Virus genome (UHGV): UHGV-0094592
Reading direction: 5' to 3' (one strand)
Length of the DNA: 13,829 nucleotides
Source of the DNA: a virus
Below the pieces are notes generated by a model. It worked only from the letters and a program-made list of their open reading frames with translations, had not been told where the DNA came from and did no database searches. The first letter of the stretch is position 1. Every line of letters begins with the position of its first letter. Of this stretch, positions 1 to 13,829 are shown in pieces. The position numbers were made by a program, and so were the translations under genes.

Positions 1-1409
1 CCATGGTCAGAGCCGAAGAACAGGAAGTTTTTACGACCCAGACTGACCGCCCGCAAGGCATTTTCAGCGATGTTGTTGTCGATTTCCACCCAGCCATTAC
101 TGCAGTACACGTTCAGGGCCTTCCACTGTTTCAGTAGGTATGCGAACGCTTTTGCCGTATCCGAGTGACGCGACAGTGTTTTCATCTGTTGCTGTATCCG
201 GTCATACAGTGACTGCATCAGTGGCGCGGCTCTTGCTTTTCTTGCCGCCAGACGCTGTTCTGCTGAACATCCCCGGACTTCTGCCTCGATGGTATACAGT
301 TCACCGATACGCTGCAGGGCTTCCGTGGTGATGTCGGTTGGCACTCTTGCATGCACATCGTGGATTTTTCTCCGGGCATGGGCCATACACGCAGCTTCCG
401 TTATTCTGCCGGATTCGTATAACGCCCGGTAACCACCGTAAGCATCTGCCTGAAGCACACCGCTGTAACCGGCTAGGTGATTCTGTGGATGGATACCTTT
501 CCGGTCCGGGCTGTACGCGAACCAGACCGCCGGGGGCATCTGTGAACCGGCGTTACGGTCATCACGGACATAGACCCACAGCCGGGCAGTTCTTGTTTTA
601 CCACTGCCCGGCTCCTGGACCGGAACGGGGATATCATCCGCATGAACTTTACCGGGCATCAGTACATACTGGCGCAGGACGTCATACAGCGGCTCCAGCA
701 GTTCAGCAACGGCACCGGTCCAGCGACCCAGTGTGGCACGGCTCAGCTCCACGCCCTGACGACGGTATATTTCTGACTGGCGGTATAACGGCAGATGGTC
801 TGCATATTTTCCAGCGACAACATGGGCCAGAAGCCCCGCTCCGGCATAACTGCGTGCAATGGGTTTTGAAGGCACCGGAGCCTGCACGATATGGTCGCAC
901 CGGCAACAGGCCAGTTTCGGACGTTGTGTTTCGATAACCTTAAAGGCGCTGCTGATAAGCTCCAGTTGCTCTGACACATCACATCCCAGAGAACTGAGTT
1001 CGCCACCACAGGCAGGACAGCATTCCTCTTCCGGCCGGATAACCCGGGTTTCTCGGGGAAGTGAGGCCGGTAACGGTTTACGGGCTGAAGACTGGCGCAG
1101 TGCAGATGGCAGTGCCGGGTCATATTGCTCACCCAGCGTTTCCGCCATTTCTTCCTGAAGTGCGCTGATTCGCTCCTGTGCTTCCTGTATCTGTCGTTCG
1201 GTTTTTGCGCGAAGTTTTTCTGAGCTTTTACCGAACTGCATGCGCTGCAGTTTTGCAATCAGCGCCTTCAGCCGGTTGATTTCGGAAGCATAAGCCGCCA
1301 CCCGCAGTGAGAGCAGGCGGTTATATTCGGCCATCTGGCGGATGGTGTCCTGTTGCGTCTGCAACAGCGCCCGCAGGCGGGCATTCTCATGAGCAAGTGA
1401 GGTGTCCAT
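1..1409 (-). CDS. tnpC: IS66-family transposase TnpC (orf3), 5' 469 codons; 3' end lies beyond the left window edge
   Basis: Uninterrupted minus-strand frame from ATG at 1409-1407 to the window edge (codon phase 5..3); absent from the ORF track because there is no in-window stop. Translation starts [25 protein letters not shown] and contains a CPACGG...CCRCDH zinc-finger-like motif and the conserved IS66 transposase core ending ...[13 protein letters not shown] at the edge. RBS GTGAGGA lies just upstream. Confidence 0.9.
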
Positions 1410-1428
1410 ATCCTCACTTTACAACGGG

Positions 1429-1776
1429 TTATATACGGATTCCAGCGCGTTCTGTTCGTTTCGGGTGCTTCCAGTTGATACCTTCAAGAAGCATAGATAA
1501 CTGAGCCGGAGTAAGGTGAACCTTTCCATCGCGGGTGACCGGCCAGACGAAGCGGCCCCGTTCCAGGCGTTTGGTGAAGAGGCACAGTCCGTCGCTGTCA
1601 GCCCACAACACTTTTATCTGGTCACCCCGGCGTCCGCAAAAGATGAACAGATGCCCGGAGAACGGGTCATCCTTCAGGACGTTCTGAACTTTTGATGCCA
1701 GGCCGTTAAAACCATTTCGCATATCGGTAATACCGGCAACCAGCCAGATACGCGAACCGGCAGGGAGAGATATAAT
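1429..1776 (-). CDS. tnpB: IS66-family TnpB (orf2); conserved N-terminus begins at a non-ATG codon
   Basis: ORF track gives 1429..1722 (MRNGFNGLASKVQNVLKDDPFSGHLFIFCGRRGD...), but the same frame continues upstream without a stop as ISLPAGSRIWLVAGITD-MRNGFNGL, matching the IS66 TnpB N-terminus as I recall it. The only codon at the conserved start position is ATT (1776-1774), overlapping the tnpA TGA stop. Confidence 0.75.
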   Translation of the reverse strand: MISLPAGSRIWLVAGITDMRNGFNGLASKVQNVLKDDPFSGHLFIFCGRRGDQIKVLWADSDGLCLFTKRLERGRFVWPVTRDGKVHLTPAQLSMLLEGINWKHPKRTERAGIRI

Positions 1777-2387
1777 CAGTGGCTGCTCCCTTTCATTTCG
1801 CGGATAAGTGTCTGTAATAACGCCGGCGTCAGTTCACCTTTCAGCCTGAGAGTTCCGGCCGGCAGAACCAGCTCACAGCACAGACTGTCGGGCGGTGTAT
1901 TTATCTGCTCAGGTTCCTGTGCGGGTGCCGGGATTTTATTATCCGGCTCCGGCGTTAACGTCACGGGAAGTAGCGATGTTTCATGTTCGCCGGGCGGCTG
2001 CAGGCCGCCGTTACGCCAGAGATGCCGCCAGTTAAAGAGCAGGTTATCGTTGATTCCGTTCTCGCGAGCTATTTGTGCGACACAGGCACCGGGTAAAAGA
2101 GTTTGCTGAACAAGTCTCCATTTAAACTCCTGTGAAAATCGGTTCCGGCGGTTTTTCTCTGTTTTCACAGTCTGAGTTACTGTCGGGGCTGAAGGGTATC
2201 GCCCCGGGAAAAGAGCCCGGGCCAGTTGCATGCAGGAATATTCACCGGAAAGAGGCCAGTCAGCGAATATCTGGTGAAATCGCCTCACCAGAGAAAAAAT
2301 GGCGGTTTTGCTGACACCGGTCTGCGCAGAAATGCGCGGGTACGACAGTGACTCGTCAAATCTCAGTTGTAGCACACGCAGGATCAA
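1776..2387 (-). CDS. tnpA: IS66-family accessory protein TnpA (orf1) with a predicted N-terminal HTH; start codon uncertain (TTG at 2387 or downstream)
   Basis: 203-codon minus ORF directly upstream of tnpB. HTH-like segment ISAQTGVSKTAIFSLVRRF and the conserved IAREN-GINDNLLFNWRHLWRNG motif typical of IS66 orf1. Confidence 0.8.
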   Translation of the reverse strand: MILRVLQLRFDESLSYPRISAQTGVSKTAIFSLVRRFHQIFADWPLSGEYSCMQLARALFPGRYPSAPTVTQTVKTEKNRRNRFSQEFKWRLVQQTLLPGACVAQIARENGINDNLLFNWRHLWRNGGLQPPGEHETSLLPVTLTPEPDNKIPAPAQEPEQINTPPDSLCCELVLPAGTLRLKGELTPALLQTLIREMKGSSH

Positions 2388-2420
2388 TTCCGGATTATCT
2401 GCCAGTACCGCCTTTTGTGC

Positions 2421-2453
2421 GTAAGCGTCAACGGAGCACCGTATTGACGCTTA
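2421..2453. repeat. IS66-type terminal inverted-repeat-like sequence (GTAAGCGTCAA...TTGACGCTTAT), internally palindromic
   Basis: Plus strand reads GTAAGCGTCAACGGAGCACCGTATTGACGCTTAT. IS66-family ends characteristically start GTAAGCG. It sits between the tnpC 3' fragment stop (2451-2453) and the tnpA start. Confidence 0.6.
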
Positions 2454-2636
2454 TTTATTGGTGAGTACTACGTTCCATGGCAGGAGTTCGCCAACTCGGT
2501 TGGAAGGCCATTCCGGCAGTACGCTCAGAATATGGCGCAGATACGCTTCCGGATCGATACCGTTCAGACGGCAGGTGCCGATCAGCCCGTACAGCAGTGC
2601 TCCACGCTCGCCGCCGTGATCGCTACCGAAGAACAC
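2451..2636 (-). pseudogene. Detached 3' fragment of an IS66 transposase (TnpC C-terminal 61 codons)
   Basis: Translation VFFGSDHGGERGALLYGLIGTCRLNGIDPEAYLRHILSVLPEWPSNRVGELLPWNVVLTNK is the C-terminal tail of IS66 TnpC. Its first residues (FFGSDHG) duplicate the last residues of the tnpC copy cut by the window edge. Homology stops abruptly near 2637. Confidence 0.85.
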
Positions 2637-2699
2637 GTAGATGATATGACCTTTATATACTCACTATAGCATTGGTGGGATATTCCAGAGGAGGTCATC

Positions 2700-2954
2700 A
2701 TGCATTCGGAAAATATTGCGGCTTACGTCGGGCTGGATGTGCATAAAGAAACGTTGGCGGTTGCTATTGCTGCACCTGAACGGCTTGGCGAAGTTCGTTA
2801 TTATGGTACGATTAACAACGAAGCCCAGGCTGTACGTCGATTATTTCAGAAATTGCAGGGACTTTACGGAAACATTCTTTCCTGCTATGAGGCTGGCCCC
2901 TGTGGTTTTGGGCTATATCATCAACTCACGATATTTATAATTAAATGCGCATAA
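2700..2954 (+). pseudogene. IS110-family transposase, N-terminal fragment (84 codons, truncated)
   Basis: MHSENIAAYVGLDVHKETLAVAIA...CYEAGPCGFGLYHQL carries the IS110-family N-terminal signatures (GxDxxK and CYEAxG). Strong RBS GGAGG 7 nt upstream. Full-length IS110-family transposases are several-fold longer as far as I recall, and this ORF ends after only 84 codons. Confidence 0.75.
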
Positions 2955-3005
2955 CTTATTGAATTTAACCAACAAACATCGCTGCAAATAACGTTAAAAA
3001 TCGCA

Positions 3006-3030
3006 AATTAACTACACCATTAACTACACC
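3006..3030. repeat. Island-boundary direct repeat, left copy (AATTAACTACACCATTAACTACACC; tandem 12-mer ATTAACTACACC x2); candidate att/arm site
   Basis: Perfect 25/25 identity to 13622-13646; imperfect homology continues about 45 bp to the right of both copies. Confidence 0.75.
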
Positions 3031-3521
3031 GTTCGGTGCACTGTATGCAACAATGCGGAACAAATAGACACAAGCGACGGGCTATACCGTTATCATTTTC
3101 CGGCTATCCGCCATGAAGCTGGTGGATGATCACGGATAAACCGTTATGGAAGTCCCCATATCGGCATCATGCCCACCAGCGAGATTAGTTATCTGGTTGC
3201 TGATGGGAGGCTGACGAACCTCGATGCTAGGGTGCGCAAAACTAGTGAGACCTTTTTTCTCTGCAACAGGCCCATAATTCGCGTTTTCTTTGTCTGCCGT
3301 AAGGTGGGGGATTTTTGGCGGATCCAGCAATGGCGCGGATTTTGTGATTTTTTATAGATAGACCTCATCTATCAATCCCGTGCACACCTTCCCAAAAAAA
3401 GTTTTCGAACCTGCGGCGATGTGAACAAGGGTAGGCGGGCGGTCCCATAAGCAATGAGGTGTAGGGATTTCTATCCCCCTGGGGGTATTAAACACCACCC
3501 GATTTAAATACCGTCTTTTTT

Positions 3522-3844: not shown

Positions 3845-3917
3845 TGTGCCCCCATCGCTCTGATAGCCTGGTGTCGTCAGGTCCTTCCTGGAATTATGGC
3901 CCGTTACGGGGCGGCGG

Positions 3918-4460
3918 TTACTCGCCTTTGTTCTGTAGCAACTTCTCAGGCGCGCTTCCGGTAGTTTCCATCAGGTAATCAGCCAGTATCTGTGGCAGGT
4001 TTTCGTCAAGTCTTGCACATGCGTTACATGCTTTGGCTATTTCCCTTTTTAGTTCATCCAGCATATACGGCCTTATATCGGGAAAGCGCCTTTGCATTGT
4101 GAGCGGGAGGCTGTCCATGATTGATGAAATCTGACTCGCTAGTTTTGAAATCGCGTAGATGCAAAACTTTGTATCAATCACCTCGCCGCGTTCGCGCTCG
4201 TTTTTAAGTTCCTGCGCTTCCGCCTGTGCTGTCAGCAATCTGATTCTTACGCGTAAAAGTTCATCATCATCAATCTCGCCTTTGTCGTTTGTAAGCTGGT
4301 TAATTGCATTGTTAACCCTATTGTCTATCACGCTAGCAACATCATAAAACGCCTCACGGCCTTTACGCTCAACGGGAGTTACTCCCCACTTGTCGAACGC
4401 TGTCGCACTTACGCGGCAGCTTTGCGCCATAGTTTTTTTGTTCATCAGGTGCGATTTCAT
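3918..4460 (-). CDS. Terminase small subunit, phage lambda Nu1-like
   Basis: Translation (...RLLTAQAEAQELKNERERGEVIDTKFCIYAISKLASQISSIMDSLPLTMQRRFPD...) matches lambda gpNu1 as I recall it (RLTRAQADAQELKNARDSAEVVETAFCTFVLSRIAGEIASILDGLPLSVQRRFPE). ORF track start is GTG 4472; ATG at 4460 has RBS GGGGA and ATG at 4445 aligns with the Nu1 N-terminus (M..NKK). Confidence 0.85.
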   Translation of the reverse strand: MKSHLMNKKTMAQSCRVSATAFDKWGVTPVERKGREAFYDVASVIDNRVNNAINQLTNDKGEIDDDELLRVRIRLLTAQAEAQELKNERERGEVIDTKFCIYAISKLASQISSIMDSLPLTMQRRFPDIRPYMLDELKREIAKACNACARLDENLPQILADYLMETTGSAPEKLLQNKGE

Positions 4461-4472
4461 CAATATCCCCAC

Positions 4473-4637
4473 TTAGTTAAGGTTTCAGGTTGGTGTGTTG
4501 GTGTTATCTTTCCCTTTTTATTCATAGAGATAGAGCGAAAAACAAAACCACCACCACCAACCCGAAAAGGCTCATAAATAGCGAAAATCCGCAAGGTCGC
4601 CGCCCCGTAACGGGTCCATATGCCGGAAAGGACCCGT
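4473..4637 (-). other. Lambda-type cos site (cosQ-cosN-cosB) with exact cosN 12-mer GGGCGGCGACCT (minus strand, 4605..4594)
   Basis: Minus strand reads ...TTTACGGGTCCTTTCCGG-CATATGGACCCGTTACG-GGGCGGCGACCT-TGCGGATTTTCGCTATTTATGAGCCTTTTCGGG. Lambda right and left ends read ...TTTACGGGTCCTTTCCGGTGATCCGACAGGTTACG / GGGCGGCGACCTCGCGGGTTTTCGCTATTTATGAAAATTTTCCGG. It lies directly upstream of the Nu1-like gene, as in lambda. Confidence 0.85.
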
Positions 4638-4660
4638 AAAAAAAGCCGGATTTCTCCGGC
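4638..4660 (-). terminator. Rho-independent terminator after the capsid operon (stem GCCGGA/TCCGGC, 7-T run on minus strand)
   Basis: Hairpin 4645-4660 followed on the minus strand by TTTTTTT (4644..4638), 6 bp downstream of the 137-aa gene stop. Confidence 0.7.
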
Positions 4661-4666
4661 CTTATG

Positions 4667-5080
4667 TCAGATGGTTTTCAGTATGCGATCGACGTCGCCT
4701 TCATCGCCCTGGTTTCTGCCGTCGTATGCCATGCCGGGTGATACGGCTTTCGGGCTGTGCATGTCCATAAAGTTTTCAAAGGCTGCGGTAAGCTCCGGCG
4801 CAACCTTCGGGCGCTCCTGCTCTATGGTCATGTTCAGGATTTCACGAGCATTATCGACGCTAATACATGGCACGTTTGCCATTGCACGTAACAGCGGCTG
4901 ATAGTCGTTATGTTCATGAAGCGCCATAATCGCATCAGCGCGCGGCTTGTCCTGCTCTTCCAGTTTGTTGAGTTGATATACGGCCTCGTAGGTTGATAAA
5001 CCTCTGTCAGCCATTGCCCGCGCTTCTGCTTTAAATTTACTCGCCAGCGGTAGCGCCATGATGCTTTCATTCGTTGCCAT
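4667..5080 (-). CDS. Hypothetical capsid-module protein (137 aa), acidic; possible scaffold or size-determination factor
   Basis: ORF with RBS AGGGGAA 3 nt upstream of ATG 5080; sits between the gpD-like gene and the terminator/cos. No confident family assignment. Confidence 0.6.
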   Translation of the reverse strand: MATNESIMALPLASKFKAEARAMADRGLSTYEAVYQLNKLEEQDKPRADAIMALHEHNDYQPLLRAMANVPCISVDNAREILNMTIEQERPKVAPELTAAFENFMDMHSPKAVSPGMAYDGRNQGDEGDVDRILKTI

Positions 5081-5092
5081 CGTTTCCCCTGC

Positions 5093-5428
5093 TTATCGCG
5101 CCAGCGGCTGAACGGATACGCCAGAACCCGCAAAGGCGGCGCATTTTTTCGCGTCAGTGTCGGCGCTCTCAGGCCAGTTTACGGCGGCGATATTAAATAT
5201 CCCCGTCTTGTAACACTGTGCTGATTTCTGCTTTGACGTGTCCACGGGGTACGAGGTCAGATAAACAGCCTTCCCAGATTCCTGACCATCCCACGGCTTA
5301 AACTCGCCATTGTCCGCCAGCATCAGCGGGGTAAATTCCTGAATAACGCCAGCATCAGCGGCAAAATGTACCAGCGTCGTGGATACCTGCTGACTGCCTG
5401 CAAATAACTCAATGTATGGAGTGTCCAT
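5093..5428 (-). CDS. Head decoration protein, lambda gpD-like
   Basis: ...FTPLMLADNGEFKPWDGQ...YKTGIFNIAAVNWPESADTDAKKCAAFAGSGVSV versus recalled lambda gpD ...MTPLMLDTSSRKLVAWDGT...[44 protein letters not shown] 4 nt upstream of the ATG. Confidence 0.8.
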   Translation of the reverse strand: MDTPYIELFAGSQQVSTTLVHFAADAGVIQEFTPLMLADNGEFKPWDGQESGKAVYLTSYPVDTSKQKSAQCYKTGIFNIAAVNWPESADTDAKKCAAFAGSGVSVQPLAR

Positions 5429-5439
5429 AGAATCCCCCG

Positions 5440-6495
5440 TTAAGCAATTTTGACGGTAACAAATTTGCGAATATCTGCCGGAACCGGCTGCGGTGCGCTG
5501 TGCGTCTGCACGTACTCAATCGCCGGATCGCCGTCCTCAATCCAGTTTTTCGGGTAGTACATGTTTTGCGTTGCGCCTGTTCTTACCGCTTCCTGATCCA
5601 TAATCGCACCATAGGCCACCAGCCCTTTGTTGTTGGTGTTGCCCAGGACCAGCAAATCAGGATCAAGGAAATATTTTTCTGTGCCGTCGCTGTCAGTGTA
5701 TTTGCCGGAATAGACGATAAGGGCCAGATCACCAAGATAGCCTTTAAAGCTCACCACTTCGCCCAGGTTTTTACATGCCAGCTCTGCGGCGGATTCTGAA
5801 CCACGGGAGAGATCGTACAGTTCACGGAATTTTTTAAAGCTGCGTAACATGCGCCATACATCAACGCCCATAATCATGACGTTTGCGGGGCAACCTGCCT
5901 GATCTGCGTATAGCTCAATGTCATAGATTGGGTCGTGTATGTCTTTGTCCTGCTCTGACCATTTTTTACCGTCGGCCTGCTCTATGATGTTTTTTTCCGG
6001 TATCTTCCAGTCGATTTCATAGCGCTCTATGCCTTCGCCCTCAATGATGTTTTTTCCGGTCGTTATCGCATTCACCGCCAGCCATTCCACGCGCGCTTTA
6101 ATGGCGTTTATCTGGCGGCGCATGTTGCCAGTAATCAGGCGCATACGGCGGTAGGTAGGGTCGTTAAGCTGTGCCGGATCTTCTCCAGCCATGCGCATTA
6201 TTGTTTTTAATGGATCGATTTCGTGTTTTGGCTTCATGTAGCCAGGGCGAATAATGCTGGTTTCGTACCCTTTATCGCGCTGAACCTGGCTACCAACCAT
6301 AGGCGAACAAAACGCCGACATAGTGACTTCTTCAATATCCAGGTTATCTAACATGATGTCCTGTGTGTTGAATGTCGCCACGTTCGGGAAAAACAGCGCG
6401 GTAAACAGCGGACTAAATTTAAATTCCGCAATATCCTCGCGATTCAGGTACGCGAAAAGCTGGTGTGTGTTAAGTGCCATTGCTTTGACTGCCAT
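5440..6495 (-). CDS. Major capsid protein, lambda gpE-like (351 aa)
   Basis: Conserved blocks EFKFSPLF, RPGYMKPKHEIDP, EDPAQLNDPTYRRMRLI, WSEQDKDIHDP, VSFKGYLGDLALIVYSGKYTD, LLVLGNTNNKGLVAYGAIMD and YPKNWIEDGDPAIE align with recalled lambda gpE (KFKFDPLF, TPGYVKPKHEVNP, EDPQNLADPAYRRRRII, WSKRDKSTYDP, VSYKGMYGDVAIVVYSGQYVE, MVLGNTQARGLRTYGCIQD, YPKNWVTTGDPAREF). [11 protein letters not shown]; start overlaps the upstream stop (TAATG). Confidence 0.9.
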   Translation of the reverse strand: MAVKAMALNTHQLFAYLNREDIAEFKFSPLFTALFFPNVATFNTQDIMLDNLDIEEVTMSAFCSPMVGSQVQRDKGYETSIIRPGYMKPKHEIDPLKTIMRMAGEDPAQLNDPTYRRMRLITGNMRRQINAIKARVEWLAVNAITTGKNIIEGEGIERYEIDWKIPEKNIIEQADGKKWSEQDKDIHDPIYDIELYADQAGCPANVMIMGVDVWRMLRSFKKFRELYDLSRGSESAAELACKNLGEVVSFKGYLGDLALIVYSGKYTDSDGTEKYFLDPDLLVLGNTNNKGLVAYGAIMDQEAVRTGATQNMYYPKNWIEDGDPAIEYVQTHSAPQPVPADIRKFVTVKIA

Positions 6496-6701
6496 TATTC
6501 ACCCCCATGAGTCTGATTTATGCCCAGCGCCGCGCGTAAATAGGAGCGTACCTGCCAGCCTGTTGACGGCTCAACCATCGCCAGCGGATCAAGTCCTGCC
6601 GCAATGCCTGCTTTTACGTTCTGCTGGTGGCGTTCCTTGAGCGCCTTCACGATGTCGGGGCTTATGTACACCGAAACACCGCCTTTTTTCTCTTCAGCCA
6701 T
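6495..6701 (-). CDS. Hypothetical small protein (68 aa), first gene of the capsid operon, translationally coupled to the major capsid gene
   Basis: RBS AAGAGGAA 7 nt upstream of ATG 6701; its stop overlaps the capsid ATG. Confidence 0.6.
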   Translation of the reverse strand: MAEEKKGGVSVYISPDIVKALKERHQQNVKAGIAAGLDPLAMVEPSTGWQVRSYLRAALGINQTHGGE

Positions 6702-6729
6702 AGTAAGAAATTCCTCTTTGACTTAAAAA

Positions 6730-6786
6730 ATTATAACTGGATGTTCATCCAGCTCTGATTATAATCAGGATTGCATTTTGTGCAAT
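6730..6786 (-). promoter_or_regulatory. Candidate capsid-operon promoter (perfect -10 TATAAT on minus strand, weak -35) with three adjacent palindromes upstream
   Basis: Minus-strand TATAAT at 6735..6730. Palindromes TGGATGttCATCCA (6738-6751), CTGATTATAATCAG (6755-6768) and ATTGCAttttgTGCAAT (6770-6786) lie immediately upstream in minus sense. Confidence 0.5.
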
Positions 6787-6866
6787 GATATTGAGTTGTG
6801 TTGCAAATTATGAAATGATGATCCCGCTCATGTGTGTCAGTGCACCAAAAAGCCTCATATGCAAAA

Positions 6867-6903
6867 GCCCGATAAGCCACCTCTGACCTTATCGGGCTTT
6901 TTT
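6867..6903 (+). terminator. Strong hairpin with a T-run on both strands (plus-strand T6); bidirectional terminator-like element
   Basis: Stem GCCCGATAAG/CTTATCGGGC (10 bp, 11-nt loop) followed by TTTTTT on plus and TTTT on minus. Confidence 0.55.
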
Positions 6904-7078
6904 ATCTGCCTGCAAAGATGTCGAACGAAAATTAACCACAACCATCATCTTTTTTGCATCAAAACAATTAAAAACAATAAATTACGCTCATGATGATGAT
7001 GACGATAAAATCACAAAAATGCGCTTTTTTCCGCGCCTCCCGCCCCGTGTTCAGGCCCACCCCGCCAGGAGGACCCGT

Positions 7079-7100
7079 AAAAAAGCCGGATTGCTCCGGC
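7079..7100 (-). terminator. Rho-independent terminator after ssb; sequence paralog of the cosQ-side terminator at 4638-4660
   Basis: Stem GCCGGA/TCCGGC with loop, followed on minus strand by TTTTTT; 17 bp downstream of the ssb stop. About 35 bp are near-identical to 4631-4660. Confidence 0.7.
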
Positions 7101-7116
7101 TTCTGTCACTCGTCGC

Positions 7117-7539
7117 TTAAAACGGTATGTTATCCCCGTACGGATCATCATTCCCCGCCTGTTGTTTTGCCCTGTTCAGCGCGTCAGTAGCCTGGCCCTG
7201 TTGACCTTTTTTGCCGCCCAGTCGCGCCGTTCGCGCACTGATTACACTGTCTGCGATAACCTGCCAGCCCTGCCGCGTTTCTCCGTTCTGCCCAGTCCAC
7301 TGGCTGATCTGCATGTTACCCGCCACGCTCAGGAGTTCACCCTTGCGGTGCCTTTCCAGTGCTTCGGCCTGTCTGCCAAATGCCAGGACGGATAACCACA
7401 TCGTCGCCGTTCCGTCATCTGCCTGGCTGCACGGAAGGGGGACCGCCATACGCGCCAGCGTCATCGGTGTGCCCTTGCTGGTCTGTTTTACCTGCGGGTC
7501 GTCCACCAGCCGCCCGTAAGCTGCTATCTGTGCTGTCAT
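7117..7539 (-). CDS. ssb: Single-stranded DNA-binding protein (SSB-like OB-fold with C-terminal ...DNIPF tail)
   Basis: 140 aa. N-terminal OB-fold pattern resembles E. coli SSB; the protein ends ...NDDPYGDNIPF, an acidic IPF tail like the DDDIPF tail of E. coli SSB. Start overlaps the upstream gene stop (ATGA). Confidence 0.8.
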   Translation of the reverse strand: MTAQIAAYGRLVDDPQVKQTSKGTPMTLARMAVPLPCSQADDGTATMWLSVLAFGRQAEALERHRKGELLSVAGNMQISQWTGQNGETRQGWQVIADSVISARTARLGGKKGQQGQATDALNRAKQQAGNDDPYGDNIPF

Positions 7540-7796: not shown

Positions 7797-7990
7797 CTCC
7801 CCACTTTTACTACCCACTTTTTGAAATTACCCAACGTCTCCCCACTTCTTTTTTTTGTGATTCTAACGTGATGTTTTTCAATGTGTTTTTTATTCCCCAC
7901 TTTTTGGGGTATATACAGGTGGGAAAGTGGGGAATCACGTTTCAATTTTGTTAAATTCCCCACACTCCCCACTTTTACTACCCACTTTTT
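7797..7990. repeat. Putative origin of replication: iteron array (CCCCACTTTT family) flanking an AT-rich core
   Basis: 23-bp direct repeat CTCCCCACTTTTACTACCCACTTTT at 7797-7821 and 7965-7989. Additional TCCCCACTT copies at 7837-7848, 7893-7905, 7957-7966 and an inverted copy at 7924-7934. Located directly 3' of the helicase gene. Confidence 0.7.
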
Positions 7991-9404
7991 ACAGTGGGCG
8001 CACGTCATCACCGTCAATAGCAATAACGCCATCACCTTCCAGCTTGTACAGCCAGCGCCGGAAGTGTTTCATCTCATACCCCAGCTTTTTCATATCATCG
8101 CGCAACAACGGAATAGTGCATTTATCTCCGCGCTGTGTGCGTGAACGGATACAGCCCCATAGCGCGGCATGATTCTCCGTCTTGTTCCCGGCTTCCTCGA
8201 TGCGCTCCAGTTCAACGGGTGGGCGCGGCTTATCCACAACAACCAGCGACGTGATTAACTCCCCGTCAGTGTCGGTAAAAAGCTCCACCACACGTAAATC
8301 GTATGCGGCCTCTTTCAGTTCCTCCGCGTCCTTCATTTTTGTGCAGGAGATAACCAGGGCTTCACTGTCTGCACCTTCACGGCGAATACGGTATTCAGCG
8401 TCCAGAGATGCACGAAATGCACTGGAACCACGCGCCCCCTTTGTTTCATCCTTGCCGGAATGGTGAACCACCAGCACCGTGGCCCCTGTGCGGCGTTTCA
8501 GTTCGTCACATCCACGGATAAACGCCCCCATATCCCGCGCGTCATTTTCATCATTACCGCCAAAGCAACGCGCCAGCGTATCAAGAATAATCATGCGTAC
8601 CGGTTTACCCGTTTCCCGTTCAACCTGGCGGGAAGCGATGACCATTTCATCAACATCAAGCGGGACTGCCGGAAAAATCGGGCGGTTTACCAGGTACAGA
8701 TTTTCCACCCGTTCATCATTAACGATTTCCCATGCCTTGATACGGCGGGGGACACCAATGCCACCTTCACCGACAACATACATCACCGAACCATGCGCCA
8801 CCCTGCGGCCTCCCCAGTGACGGCCAGTGGCAACATGACACGCCCAGGAACACGCGAGGAACGATTTATAGGAACCGCTCGCGCCGTATGTGCTGCACAA
8901 TGAATTAGCCGGAATCACGCCCTTAACGACATAATCAAGCTGTGTGTCGTACCCTGCAGATCCAATGCTCATTGGTAGCGTGGTTTTTCGCTGGCTGTAT
9001 TGCTCGTCAGTAAGTATTTCCCCGCGCTCTGCCTGTTCGCGGATCCGTTGCAGGTAGTCGTGCCAGTTCTCCAGCTTCTGGCTGTGCATTCCATCAGGGT
9101 AATAATTCGCATCCCGTACACCTGCCGCCGCCAGCTTTTGCCCGATAGCATTAATATTTGACGGCTTGATGTGGCCTGCCTTGTACAGCCGGACACAATA
9201 GCGACCATCGTCGATAATTTTCAGGTCTGCCAGTTCGTCAAGCTGGCTGTCTCCCAGCCATACAGGCGGGACGTTATCACCAGCAAGTCGCCCGTCCTGT
9301 TCCTGCCACTGTTTCGCGTGCGCCCAGGCATCACTACCCGCAAAAATAATGACTTCGGTCATTTTGTCGTGTGGCTGTTTTTTTAAGTTCGGTGCCAGTT
9401 TCAT
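7989..9404 (-). CDS. Replication helicase, RepA/AAA_25-like P-loop NTPase with an N-terminal domain of unknown function
   Basis: 471 aa. P-loop-like YGASGSYKSF, Walker B-like RMIILDTLARCFGG and the VLVVHHSGKD motif typical of RepA/AAA_25-type helicases. RBS AGGGG. Start overlaps the upstream stop (ATGA). Confidence 0.8.
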   Translation of the reverse strand: MKLAPNLKKQPHDKMTEVIIFAGSDAWAHAKQWQEQDGRLAGDNVPPVWLGDSQLDELADLKIIDDGRYCVRLYKAGHIKPSNINAIGQKLAAAGVRDANYYPDGMHSQKLENWHDYLQRIREQAERGEILTDEQYSQRKTTLPMSIGSAGYDTQLDYVVKGVIPANSLCSTYGASGSYKSFLACSWACHVATGRHWGGRRVAHGSVMYVVGEGGIGVPRRIKAWEIVNDERVENLYLVNRPIFPAVPLDVDEMVIASRQVERETGKPVRMIILDTLARCFGGNDENDARDMGAFIRGCDELKRRTGATVLVVHHSGKDETKGARGSSAFRASLDAEYRIRREGADSEALVISCTKMKDAEELKEAAYDLRVVELFTDTDGELITSLVVVDKPRPPVELERIEEAGNKTENHAALWGCIRSRTQRGDKCTIPLLRDDMKKLGYEMKHFRRWLYKLEGDGVIAIDGDDVRPL

Positions 9405-11814: not shown

Positions 11815-12003
11815 TTAGTGAACTGCCTCGCAGCTTTCCTTCCATGCCAGAACTTCGGATAAAGACCAGCCAACGGAACGACCGCCGAGCTTACGCCGTG
11901 ATGGGAATTGTCCGGTTTTTTCCAGGCGGTACCGACATGAACGGCTCAGGCCTGTAAGTTGCTGACATTCTTTTTCACGTATAAAGCGATCTGTGCTTAA
12001 CAC
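11815..12003 (-). CDS. alpA: AlpA-family (prophage CP4-57-type) transcriptional regulator, 62 aa from GTG start
   Basis: Motif ...CQQLTGLSRSCRYRLEKTGQFPSRRKLGGRSVGWSLSEVLAWKESC is the AlpA/Vis-type HTH signature. GTG at 12003 is preceded by AGGGGGA. ORF track lists a longer 11815..12171 version. Confidence 0.8.
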   Translation of the reverse strand: MLSTDRFIREKECQQLTGLSRSCRYRLEKTGQFPSRRKLGGRSVGWSLSEVLAWKESCEAVH

Positions 12004-12288
12004 AATTCCCCCTTTGATATTTCTTAAAGAGTTATTTGGTGTCCTATTGTGTTGTGGTGCGTCGGATTGTGTCAGGGTGTTTATGGAATGGCAAACACTG
12101 GCGGCGGTCATTTTACAGAAGTGTGGTAATGAGAATAAAAACTCTTTTAATTCATTGTGGTGCAAAGGCATAAAATTCTGTTTTTACGCCTTTTTTACAT
12201 GTTTTTAAGAGTGATTCGCCAATGTACAAAAAGCCAGTAAAACGACTGAAAATCAACTTTTTAGGGTGTCAGTCAGATGTTAATCAAG

Positions 12289-12370: not shown

Positions 12371-13621
12371 TTATATTTCTCTGGCTATTGGCAGTGTGGT
12401 TACGTTTTTGTGAGTACCCGCCAGTATCTCTAACCGCTCTGTCCACATGTCCAGCGCATTACGTTTCGCATCGAGATAACGGGAGTGGTTATAGACTCGC
12501 TGCATCCCTGGCATCTGGTGAGCGGTGAGTTGTTCGACAATATGCGGATCCACGCCTAAATCGTTCAGCATCGTGGTAAACGTGCGCCGTATATCGTGTA
12601 GTGACCAGTGCGGATGGTTTAATTTTTTGTGCATGAATCTGCCGTATTGCGACACACTGGCTTCCTGTTTCAGTTCCCCGAGTAATAGCCCTGTGTGTCT
12701 GTTCTGCTCCACCAGCTGCGTGACGAACGGTAAAATGCTTTCCGGTATTGGCCTGAATATGGCGACCTTCGTTTTGCTGTGCTCTTTCGGTACTGTCCAG
12801 AGCATTTCCTTAAAATCCCACTCCCTGATCTCCGATAATCTCAGTTCTCCGGTTCGGCAGCCGAACACAATCAGGAGGCGGATTAGTGCGCTGTAGTAGG
12901 GCGGGAATATTTTTTTATCCAGCGCCTGTAATAATTCGCCAAGTTCTTTGTTGCTCAGCACGCGTTCGCTTATGCCTGGTTTTTTGCCAACGTCCACCAC
13001 GTTAAGATCATCCAGAACGTTACTGACTGCGTAGCGACGTTTACGGCAGAACTTAAGCGCCTGTTTACACGCCTGCATCATGTGACCAGACGTTACAGGG
13101 GATTTTTTGCGTATCCGGTCAAAACAGGCCAGCCAGTGACGTAACTCGCATTTATCCAGTGGCATATTGCCAATATGCTGTATGACGTGATTATTCAGGC
13201 GGCTTTTCAGGCATACGTAATCGACACGGTTTTCCTTTACGTGCATTTCCAGCCAGTAGCTGATCGCATCACCCACCGTTACCGGCTTTAGTGCTTCCTG
13301 TATGGAGTAATTAAGCTCATGGCGTGGATTTTTTCCTTCTGCCAGCCATGCGCGACACTGTGCCGCTTTTTCCCTGGCTGCTTTCAGGCTCAGATCAGGA
13401 TAATTTCCCAGCTTCAGGCGTTCCGGTGATACCTGGCGTCCAGCTCCTGCTCTGTAGGTGAAATACCAGGTTAATAAGCCGCTGGTGGAATGCCTGACGC
13501 TCAGGTTTCCACCGTCATTAAGAAATGTGGTTTTTGGGGCTGGTGTGCCGTTGATTTTTCTTAGCTGTGTATCGCTCAGTTTGTTAAGTGCTCTGCTCAT
13601 AATTTTGAATCCGGTCATCAC
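12371..13621 (-). CDS. int: Tyrosine recombinase / integrase, P4-type
   Basis: 416-codon ORF. N-terminal region LSDTQLRKI...YPDLSLKAAREKAAQ resembles P4-family integrase N-termini. C-terminal catalytic motifs include HDIRRTF (HxxR) and a tyrosine within RVYNHSRYLD. ORF-track start is GTG 13621; in-frame ATGs at 13618 and 13600 are alternative starts. Confidence 0.9.
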   Translation of the reverse strand: MMTGFKIMSRALNKLSDTQLRKINGTPAPKTTFLNDGGNLSVRHSTSGLLTWYFTYRAGAGRQVSPERLKLGNYPDLSLKAAREKAAQCRAWLAEGKNPRHELNYSIQEALKPVTVGDAISYWLEMHVKENRVDYVCLKSRLNNHVIQHIGNMPLDKCELRHWLACFDRIRKKSPVTSGHMMQACKQALKFCRKRRYAVSNVLDDLNVVDVGKKPGISERVLSNKELGELLQALDKKIFPPYYSALIRLLIVFGCRTGELRLSEIREWDFKEMLWTVPKEHSKTKVAIFRPIPESILPFVTQLVEQNRHTGLLLGELKQEASVSQYGRFMHKKLNHPHWSLHDIRRTFTTMLNDLGVDPHIVEQLTAHQMPGMQRVYNHSRYLDAKRNALDMWTERLEILAGTHKNVTTLPIAREI

Positions 13622-13646: not shown

Positions 13647-13829
13647 GATCATTGCACAAGGGGGTACAACGTGGAACAAGTTGGAACAAGAAAAATTGCA
13701 ATGAGCTTAAAAATCAAAAACATAATGAACAACGTGGCACATTATGAAACAGCAAAAAACACTAATTTATAAAATCACAGCGATGAATATAAAATGCCAG
13801 GTTATTGCCCCTTCCCGCATACCAAAATC

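Follow-up and report, generated by a model that had tools for sequence, protein, structure and literature searches.

Operon I of the SaPIs, the satellites of staphylococci, is under LexA control (Ubeda 2007, Mol Microbiol 65:41, cited in PMC6739421). For the related E. coli island EcCICFT073, AlpA is known as a helper-induced, SOS-independent activator, and c1499 and c1500 are described as resembling capsid and decoration genes, with no role assigned to them (Fillol-Salom et al., PMC6092414, PMC6739421). The genes c1498-c1501 are replaceable with transfer retained. Neither the regulation of the capsid-like operon nor a LexA box in Gram-negative PICIs is reported in the literature that was searched. 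In Pseudomonas aeruginosa, AlpA is an antiterminator with its HTH at residues 128-142, and its binding element lies between -35 and -10. The late promoters activated by P2 Ogr and P4 Delta (e.g. P4 Psid) have no usable -35 and carry a TGT-N12-ACA dyad at -55, lambdoid helpers regulate their late genes by Q antitermination, and the alpA promoter is autoactivated by AlpA. The gammaproteobacterial LexA box consists of an invariant CTG-N10-CAG within a 20-bp dyad that resembles TACTG(TA)5CAGTA.

The window, i.e. the whole stretch of 13,829 nt that was analyzed, holds an E. coli PICI that is related to EcCICFT073. All genes of the window are encoded on the minus strand in the organization of a PICI, and a lambda-type cos site is present on the island (Table 1). 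A query of 801 bp (6400-7200) matches the chromosome of E. coli 'clone D i14' with 100% identity and Nissle 1917 with about 99%. The island shares the set of orf68, capsid-like, decoration-like and scaffold-like genes with c1498-c1501 of EcCICFT073. Unlike EcCICFT073, it encodes a Nu1-like TerS (PF07471) and not RppA; because RppA is absent and a TerS-like gene stands in its place, the island is not EcCICFT073 itself. Islands with an RppA that is 100% identical to that of EcCICFT073 (N-terminal 50 aa compared) have nearly the same upstream region, and the same promoter is found in front of Rpp-encoding islands of the EcCICFT073 type. The AF2 model of orf68 (pLDDT 75) has the order strand-helix-helix. 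No significant structural or sequence relatives were found for this protein, and a scan of genome contigs with orf68 yielded no confirmed relative. An Rfam scan of the whole window returned no family.

Table 1 Features of the island and of the region upstream of the capsid operon (positions refer to the window)
Feature	Position	Strand	Description
Integrase	12371-13621	-	
AlpA	11815-12003	-	62 aa, PF05930 domain only, winged-helix
Helicase	7989-9404	-	RepA-type
SSB	7117-7539	-	
Intergenic region	between SSB and orf68		415 nt
Distal copy of direct repeat	6801-6819	-	19 bp, ATCATTTCATAATTTGCAA; centered about -59 from the predicted start
Proximal copy of direct repeat	6771-6789	-	19 bp, ATCATTGCACAAAATGCAA; contains the -35 hexamer and P3
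P3	6770-6786		ATTGCA-TTTTG-TGCAAT; 6-bp arms, 5-nt spacer, 17 bp
Predicted -35	6785-6780	-	TTGCAC (TTGC conserved), 16-bp spacer to the -10
P2	6755-6768		CTGATTATAATCAG, perfect 14-bp palindrome
Predicted conserved -10	6763-6758	-	TATAAT, inside P2
Extended dyad	6729-6760	-	AATCA..CTGGATG / CATCCAG..TGATT, then T-run
Predicted LexA (SOS) box	6754-6735	minus-strand reading	20-mer AGCTGGATGAACATCCAGTT; P1 is its CTG-N10-CAG core
Predicted transcription start zone	6749-6753	-	5-9 nt after the -10, inferred from sigma-70 geometry
P1	6737-6752		CTGGATG-TT-CATCCAG; 7-bp arms, 2-nt non-symmetric center, 16 bp
Downstream TATAAT	6730-6735	-	-10 of the initial annotation; possible secondary promoter element in this island only
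T6 run	6725-6730	-	conserved in all relatives
Shine-Dalgarno	6712-6717	-	AGAGGA, 10 nt before the ATG at 6701
orf68	6495-6701	-	first operon gene, phrog_3255
Major capsid protein	5440-6495	-	lambda-E-like, Phage_cap_E, PF03864, E 5e-50
Decoration protein	5093-5428	-	gpD-like, HDPD
Nu3-like protein	4667-5080	-	137 aa, resembles the C-terminal (scaffold) part of a head protease
Small terminase (TerS)	3918-4472	-	Nu1-like, PF07471

Three inverted repeats, P1 to P3, are located within 50 bp upstream of the minus-strand operon of capsid genes. As a control for chance, shuffled sequences were searched for three non-overlapping inverted repeats with arms of at least 6 and a spacer of at most 5 nt within 50 bp. 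None of 300 dinucleotide shuffles of the window contained such a cluster. Shuffling the 415-nt intergenic region 2000 times gave none either, and a shuffle of this region had 0.68 repeats on average. The initial annotation had described the repeats as three perfect palindromes upstream of a promoter for the capsid operon. Their location and the assignment of the region to this operon were borne out, with orf68 and the capsid-type genes following on the minus strand, but only P2 is strictly perfect, and P1, counted there as 14 bp, is an interrupted inverted repeat of 16 bp. The repeats are conserved DNA of regulatory appearance. A role as R-sites of cosB, bound by terminase or Rpp, was rejected on the basis of position. 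A cosB would be expected about 50-180 bp downstream of cosN and before the terminase gene, and the repeats are located 250-310 bp from cosN. The closest cosN-like sequence is at 7045-7034. Homology to phage cos regions extends to 6914, and a terminator hairpin at 6864-6900 lies between cosN and the repeats.

To follow the region across islands, 80 IMG/VR loci with orf68 homologues were reduced to 51 distinct E. coli upstream sequences and aligned. Exact-protein look-ups added more remote relatives, from Salmonella, Pluralibacter gergoviae and further E. coli strains, which are contained in a second alignment. Homology among the islands starts abruptly at about 6820. Since the DNA upstream of this point is unrelated in one subgroup, the functional unit comprises about 118 nt. 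Within this unit, TTGC(A/G)N is found exactly 16 bp upstream of the -10 in P2 in every relative, including the distant ones. The TATAAT of P2 is kept in all relatives except for two, which have TATAAC (L049) and TAAAAT (L088), and the P2 core TGATTATAATCA is nearly invariant among the 51 E. coli relatives. Because the Salmonella relative L082 has lost the symmetry of P2 and kept the TATAAT, the palindrome is best interpreted as a -10 plus its flanks. The combination TTGCAC-16-TATAAT is thus predicted to be a reasonable sigma-70 promoter of the capsid operon, and given the conservation of -35, 16-bp spacing and -10 in every relative, it should fire without an activator. Relative to the predicted start near 6751, the repeats are centered at about -27 (P3), -10 (P2) and +8 (P1) and overlap the -35 and spacer, the -10 and the predicted start site, respectively. 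The predicted leader of the operon has a length of about 50 nt. Two further candidates in the region were discarded, namely a distal promoter TTCATA-18-TATCAT, whose -10 is not conserved in the Salmonella or Pluralibacter relatives, and a small plus-strand ORF or sRNA at 6815-6886, located between the plus-strand TATAAT of P2 and the hairpin at 6864-6906; its ATG is not conserved and the homology between islands stops at about 6820.

The TATAAT that had initially been assigned to the operon as its -10 is located further downstream (Table 1). The window does contain it, with a poor hexamer 17 bp upstream, as described. Its use as the -10 of the operon is not supported by the relatives, of which only 5/51 have TATAAT at this position and most have TATGAT. 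About 8/51 have TGTGAT, CCTGAT or TCTGAT and hence not the essential A at -11, and in the Salmonella and Pluralibacter relatives a -10 is unrecognizable.

P1, the gene-proximal repeat, closely matches a LexA operator. It has exactly the arms, CTGGAT...ATCCAG, that are found in the ruvAB SOS box CGCTGGATATCTATCCAGCA (Table 4 of PMC3009722). For a quantitative comparison, the heterology index (HI) was calculated with a symmetrized count matrix, for which the same table supplied 18 validated LexA boxes of E. coli. The site at 6735-6754 has an HI of 8.44, and the next best site in the window has 14.6. In a leave-one-out calculation, the 18 validated boxes range from 2.0 to 17.0, with values of 8.6 for ruvA, 8.0 for cho, 8.1 for lexA, 10.4 for uvrD, 12.3 for dinB and 17.0 for polB. 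The probability of an HI ≤8.44 is 2.5e-7 per position, which corresponds to 0.0035 expected sites per window and 1e-4 in the intergenic region; given a palindrome with the geometry of P1, it is 1.4e-4. A total of 88 sites with an HI ≤11 occur in 509 kb of related real DNA; 87 of them are located at this promoter and one is off-target. The likeness to the E. coli ruvAB and cho boxes comprises the half-sites (CTGGAT...ATCCAG in ruvA, CTGGAT in cho), the CTG-N10-CAG spacing and a comparable HI. The boxes differ in the four central bases, which are GAAC here and ATCT there, as well as in the flanks, and ruvAB and cho are chromosomal repair genes rather than the structural operon of a mobile element. 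At positions 6 and 15, the box in the window has G/C where the consensus has T/A, and its center (GAAC) contains G+C. The affinity for LexA is therefore probably modest; ruvAB is only about 2-3-fold LexA-dependent.

The CTG-N10-CAG box has been retained by 87 of about 89 related promoters. Covering about -3 to +17, it follows the conserved -10 at a distance of 3 nt, and 33 nt separate its end from the ATG. The 3-nt distance to the -10 is shared by the E. coli variants, whose HI ranges from 6.4 to 10.2, and the Salmonella-type relatives (HI 7.45 and 8.83). In Pluralibacter, the box is kept but shifted by 12 nt (HI 9.07). The L088 lineage, a cluster of 102 member sequences, has kept the promoter, and the box is missing. 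The 16-bp core allows 48 single substitutions, only seven of which lower the HI. The core substitutions G9A, A10T, C12T, C12A and C15A that are found among the relatives all belong to these seven, and one other substitution raises the HI. C15A, found in four sequences that differ in background, disrupts a central pair of the hairpin that P1 can form, and G9A disrupts its innermost G-C pair. As changes that lower the HI break hairpin pairs, selection seems to act on LexA recognition and not just on structure, with the caveat that a mutational bias towards A/T may contribute to this pattern.

On balance, we consider it probable that the capsid operon is transcribed from a LexA-repressed, SOS-inducible sigma-70 promoter. 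Loss of a repressor would be a likelier switch than gain of an activator, because the gene-proximal repeat matches a LexA site on an ordinary sigma-70 promoter. In undamaged cells, a LexA dimer on 6754-6735 would block initiation or promoter escape. DNA damage would lead to RecA-stimulated cleavage of LexA and hence to derepression of the operon, under the same conditions that also induce lambdoid helper prophages. In this window, the predicted box also extends over the spacer and the -35 that belong to the weak downstream TATAAT, so that LexA would control both possible starts. The island would thereby receive an SOS input that is independent of AlpA.

The predicted operator is also part of a larger terminator-like dyad, which likely represents a second role of the same DNA. 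In the majority of relatives, AATCATAACTGGATG and CATCCAGTTATGATT form a 14-bp RNA stem that abuts U6 (T6 in the DNA). Across the 51-sequence alignment, 95.8% of the cells in the 14-pair stem are paired. Compensatory changes are found at three stem pairs (CG->UA, UA->CG/GC and AU->GC), and at two further pairs the only variation is to G-U, a pairing that makes sense on the gene-sense strand alone. The complementarity exceeds the 20 bp contacted by LexA and some changes are compensatory, for which reason the hairpin, as RNA or as DNA, has probably been selected as well. A pattern scan flagged the site as terminator-like on the gene strand. The predicted fold of read-through RNA, in which the stem abuts U6, has -17.7 kcal/mol (z -4.5) for the majority type and -24.4 kcal/mol (z -6.5) for L057. 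The Pluralibacter hairpin is located wholly downstream of the promoter, with U6 immediately next to it. The sequence in the window has two mismatches in the outer stem, and only an 8-bp core stem forms, with 5 nt between it and the U-run. Since the 5' arm contains the -10, RNA that is initiated at the promoter would carry just the core stem of 7-8 bp, likewise 5 nt away from the U-run, and the structure would thus mainly stop transcription that arrives from upstream.

These features may also be read as the main function of the site. P1 and its flanks, AATCA(T/G)(A/G)ACTGGATG-AA-CATCCAGTT(A/G)TGATT followed by U6, would then act mainly as RNA, namely as an intrinsic terminator or insulator against the replication/ssb module and cos. 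Transcripts that start from the -10 in the 5' arm would lack the outer stem and escape, and their 5'-terminal hairpin could stabilize the mRNA. In a stronger version, expression would need a Q- or AlpA-like antiterminator that is loaded at TGCAA in the spacer between -35 and -10. The terminator-like flag, the extent of pairing with its compensatory changes, the stable read-through fold, the Pluralibacter hairpin beyond the promoter and the T-run that is conserved everywhere all favor such a role, and P. aeruginosa PalpB provides a precedent, as AlpA binds there to an element between -35 and -10 and a terminator precedes the first gene. As the main function of P1 it is nevertheless unlikely. 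The 14 core stem positions are nearly invariant and not covarying, and C15A and G9A break pairs yet improve the match to LexA. The outer stem is mismatched twice in this window, where the U-run is separated from the core stem, and the predicted start inside the 5' arm would leave promoter-initiated RNA in most relatives with no efficient terminator. The cassettes lambda PR'-qut-tR' and PalpB-ABE-tB resemble the locus in a conserved spacer motif and in a hairpin with U-run between promoter and first gene, the likeness to the latter cassette being superficial. Unlike them, the locus has no conserved pause element near +1: no -10-like element is conserved at +1 to +15, and the sole -10-like hexamer after the start, at about +18 to +23, is not conserved. 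A comparison of the promoter with lambdoid PR'/qut regions (blastn, E≤10) yielded only short leader or Shine-Dalgarno matches in unrelated phages. Island AlpA is unlikely as a Q-like antiterminator, since it has only 62 aa and the PF05930 domain; the P. aeruginosa antiterminator has an N-terminal part that forms a ring, which this winged-helix protein lacks. A read-through terminator and a LexA operator at the same site are compatible and not exclusive of each other. A combined arrangement can be envisaged, in which the dyad of about 34 bp serves as LexA operator and as read-through terminator with an embedded -10 while a further factor reads TTGCA-N5-TGCAA and ATTTCA. Such a compact multi-input switch, shared by EcCICFT073-type PICIs, is a speculative and, taken as a whole, rather unlikely model.

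The core of P3, TTGC(A/G)-N5-TGCAA, is kept in the E. coli, Salmonella and Pluralibacter relatives and in L088, and its TGCAA(T/C) half is fixed 6 nt before the -10 in all relatives, between -35 and -10. The two copies of the 19-bp repeat are 30 bp apart at fixed positions in all relatives including L088, with an invariant core ATTTCA..AA in the distal copy. Sigma-54, CII (TTGC-N6-TTGC), IHF and Ogr/Delta were rejected by eye as factors for P3 and the distal repeat due to misfits in spacing or bases. P3 and the two 19-bp repeats, perhaps together with P2, might instead be operators for a small DNA-binding autoregulator of the island, with orf68 as a candidate, that acts beside LexA or replaces it. 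In favor of this possibility, TTGC(A/G)-N5-TGCAA and ATTTCA keep their positions even in L088 with its missing box, the 19-mer has its two perfect copies only at this promoter (0.6 matches expected in the window), and orf68, with its strand-helix-helix order, is always the adjacent first gene. We nonetheless regard autoregulation by such a protein as improbable. The initial annotation had proposed yet another mode of control, according to which a weak promoter with the downstream TATAAT needs AlpA or a helper late activator at the palindromes and thereby couples capsid expression to the helper. A TATAAT with a poor -35 does exist in this window, and P2 and P3 are centered near -38 and -55 when counted from it. 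AlpA is also a helper-induced activator of EcCICFT073 genes (PMC6092414), the conserved dyad P3 and the invariant distal repeat each have no assigned factor, and weakly similar TTGCAC motifs are found upstream of alpA (12150-12166) and int (13648-13666). The proposal still appears very unlikely to us. Its -10 is not conserved, while a complete -35/16 bp/-10 is conserved 23 bp upstream, so that the repeats sit on the core promoter and start site that go with the conserved -10, and the layout does not support an activator-dependent promoter. Repressors bind on the core promoter or start, and class I and II or Ogr/Delta activators bind at -41.5, -55 or -61.5. P1 would fill the spacer and the -35 of the proposed weak promoter, which is a repressor position, and it is a statistically strong and conserved predicted LexA box. 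Among the elements of the region, only the distal repeat (about -59) is located at an activator-like position. The alpA promoter has no second copy of P2 or P3, the motifs of P3 and the repeats recurring there only as weak similarities that contain TTGCAC, and nothing in the analysis points to binding of AlpA. The late promoters of the Ogr/Delta type are like the proposed model in that a capsid-related satellite operon is coupled to the helper; they are unlike this locus, which has a conserved -35, repeats over the core promoter and, upon inspection of 6790-6830, no TGT-N12-ACA dyad. This speaks against helper late activators, the more so as lambdoid helpers use Q antiterminators instead.

The LexA-repressed promoter, as the preferred reading, has its closest counterpart in SaPI operon I. 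Both are packaging or capsid-morphogenesis operons of a satellite behind a LexA operator, which in the island is a predicted one, with SOS derepression that is (or, in the island, would be) independent of the master regulator. SaPI operon I differs in its Gram-positive host, the other LexA motif and the unrelated genes, and its control was shown experimentally, whereas that of the capsid operon is predicted from sequence. The operon is accordingly a predicted addition to the SOS-controlled packaging and capsid operons of satellites. If the prediction holds true, the LexA operator would provide islands of the EcCICFT073 type with a second, helper-independent SOS input. This would parallel SaPI operon I in staphylococci and may suggest a convergent logic in unrelated satellites. 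Capsid-like proteins would then be made in any SOS-induced cell, which would be relevant to the interference with induced lambdoid prophages, including the Stx phages in O157 strains that carry related islands.

The island carries a lambda-type cos and a second, cos-like region on its minus strand. The cos-like region, close to the capsid promoter, shares 87-91% identity with the intergenic (cos) region between Rz and terS in VT1-Sakai and several Stx2 phages; its cosN is a variant that differs from that of lambda. The cos next to terS contains the exact lambda cosN and also holds cosQ TTTACGGGTCC. Together, the two regions suggest that lambdoid helpers of two kinds are able to package the island. 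A truncated cos copy at the other end of terS resembles cos2 of EcCICFT073. The positions of these elements are listed below.

Cos-related, terminator-like and promoter-like features of the island (window positions)
Feature	Position	Strand	Context
Second cos-like region	6914-7083	minus	just upstream of capsid promoter
cosQ-like ACGGGTCCT	7078-7070	minus	within second cos-like region
cosN-like GGGCGGGAGGCG	7045-7034	minus	within second cos-like region
13-bp perfect stem	6864-6876 with 6888-6900 (region 6860-6906)	both	T-runs on both strands
Terminator	4660-4638	minus	precedes lambda-type cos
Lambda-type cos	4594-4660	minus	just upstream of Nu1-like terS
Exact lambda cosN GGGCGGCGACCT	4605-4594	minus	in lambda-type cos
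Truncated cos copy (…GGAATTATGGCCCGTTACGGGGCGGCGG)	3886-3917	plus	strand opposite lambda-type cos; adjoins terS stop codon
-35/P3-like motif TTTGCACCACAATGAAT	12150-12166	minus	upstream of alpA
-35/P3-like motif ATCATTGCACAA	13648-13666	plus	upstream of int

Both cos sites are preceded on the minus strand by the same unit, GCCGGAG(C/A)AATCCGGC followed by a T-run and ACGGGTCCT (7079-7100 and 4638-4660), that is, a terminator and then cosQ, so this junction appears to have been duplicated as a module. Between the cos and the capsid promoter, the 13-bp stem is read as a putative bidirectional terminator because T-runs are found on both strands. The lambda cos sequence (supplement of PMC6092414) also has the segment GAGGCTTTTTGG, which lies beside this stem, within cosB and flanked there by R2 and R1. 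Counting the ssb terminator and the P1 hairpin as well, the sense strand of the 415-nt intergenic region has three terminator-like structures.

Further candidate regulatory motifs are found towards the integrase end. The second-ranked LexA-like site in the window, CAATGTACAAAAAGCCAGTA (12220-12239, HI 14.6), is located in the int-alpA intergenic region. It is probably a chance occurrence, since about 0.5 such sites are expected per window and alpA has been reported to be SOS-independent (PMC6092414, PMC6739421). Motifs resembling the -35/P3 region occur upstream of both alpA and int, the latter matching the proximal repeat exactly over 12 nt; they could represent a site for a shared regulator or have arisen by chance.

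Downstream of the packaging end, window positions 1-3500 (1-5100 of L001, an orf68-bearing locus) contain IS630, IS66 and IS110 fragments as well as a CbtA/YeeU toxin-antitoxin, antirestriction and JAB-domain block of the type usual in CP4-44-like elements. Next to the integrase there is a fragment of ISEc45. The island is therefore located within a mosaic of decayed mobile elements.

At the capsid promoter, the L088 lineage (about 130-330 on a contig of Logan SRR21205842), whose orf68 homologue is 63% identical and stands for a cluster of 102 member sequences, retains the -35 along with the TGCAAT motif of the spacer, the P2 arms (ATGATTAAAATCAT) and the T-run, but unrelated sequence has taken the place of the LexA box and hairpin. 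This lineage is a natural 'operator-less' variant that is useful in comparison. The Pluralibacter gergoviae locus (L084, positions 2436-2480) contains a 12-nt insertion, AACTGAATTTTT, that looks like a partial duplication of the left arm of the box plus T-run. It shifts the LexA-like box downstream by one turn of the helix, so that the hairpin directly adjoins U6 and lies entirely inside the transcript.

The first gene of the operon, orf68 (6495-6701), encodes a conserved 68-aa protein, to which no family or fold was assigned. Its occurrence is confined to PICI-like surroundings in E. coli, Salmonella and Pluralibacter, the Salmonella versions having a Gly/Ala/Asn-rich insertion at the N-terminus. 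Some relatives have the promoter and the first few orf68 codons in common, whereas the rest of the gene is divergent (51% overall identity in L085), which suggests recombination just inside orf68. In L085 and the Salmonella locus L082, a PerC-family gene (PF06069) directly precedes the intergenic region, at the position of the SSB gene in the window. The capsid promoter is thus preserved, whereas the module that precedes it can be exchanged.
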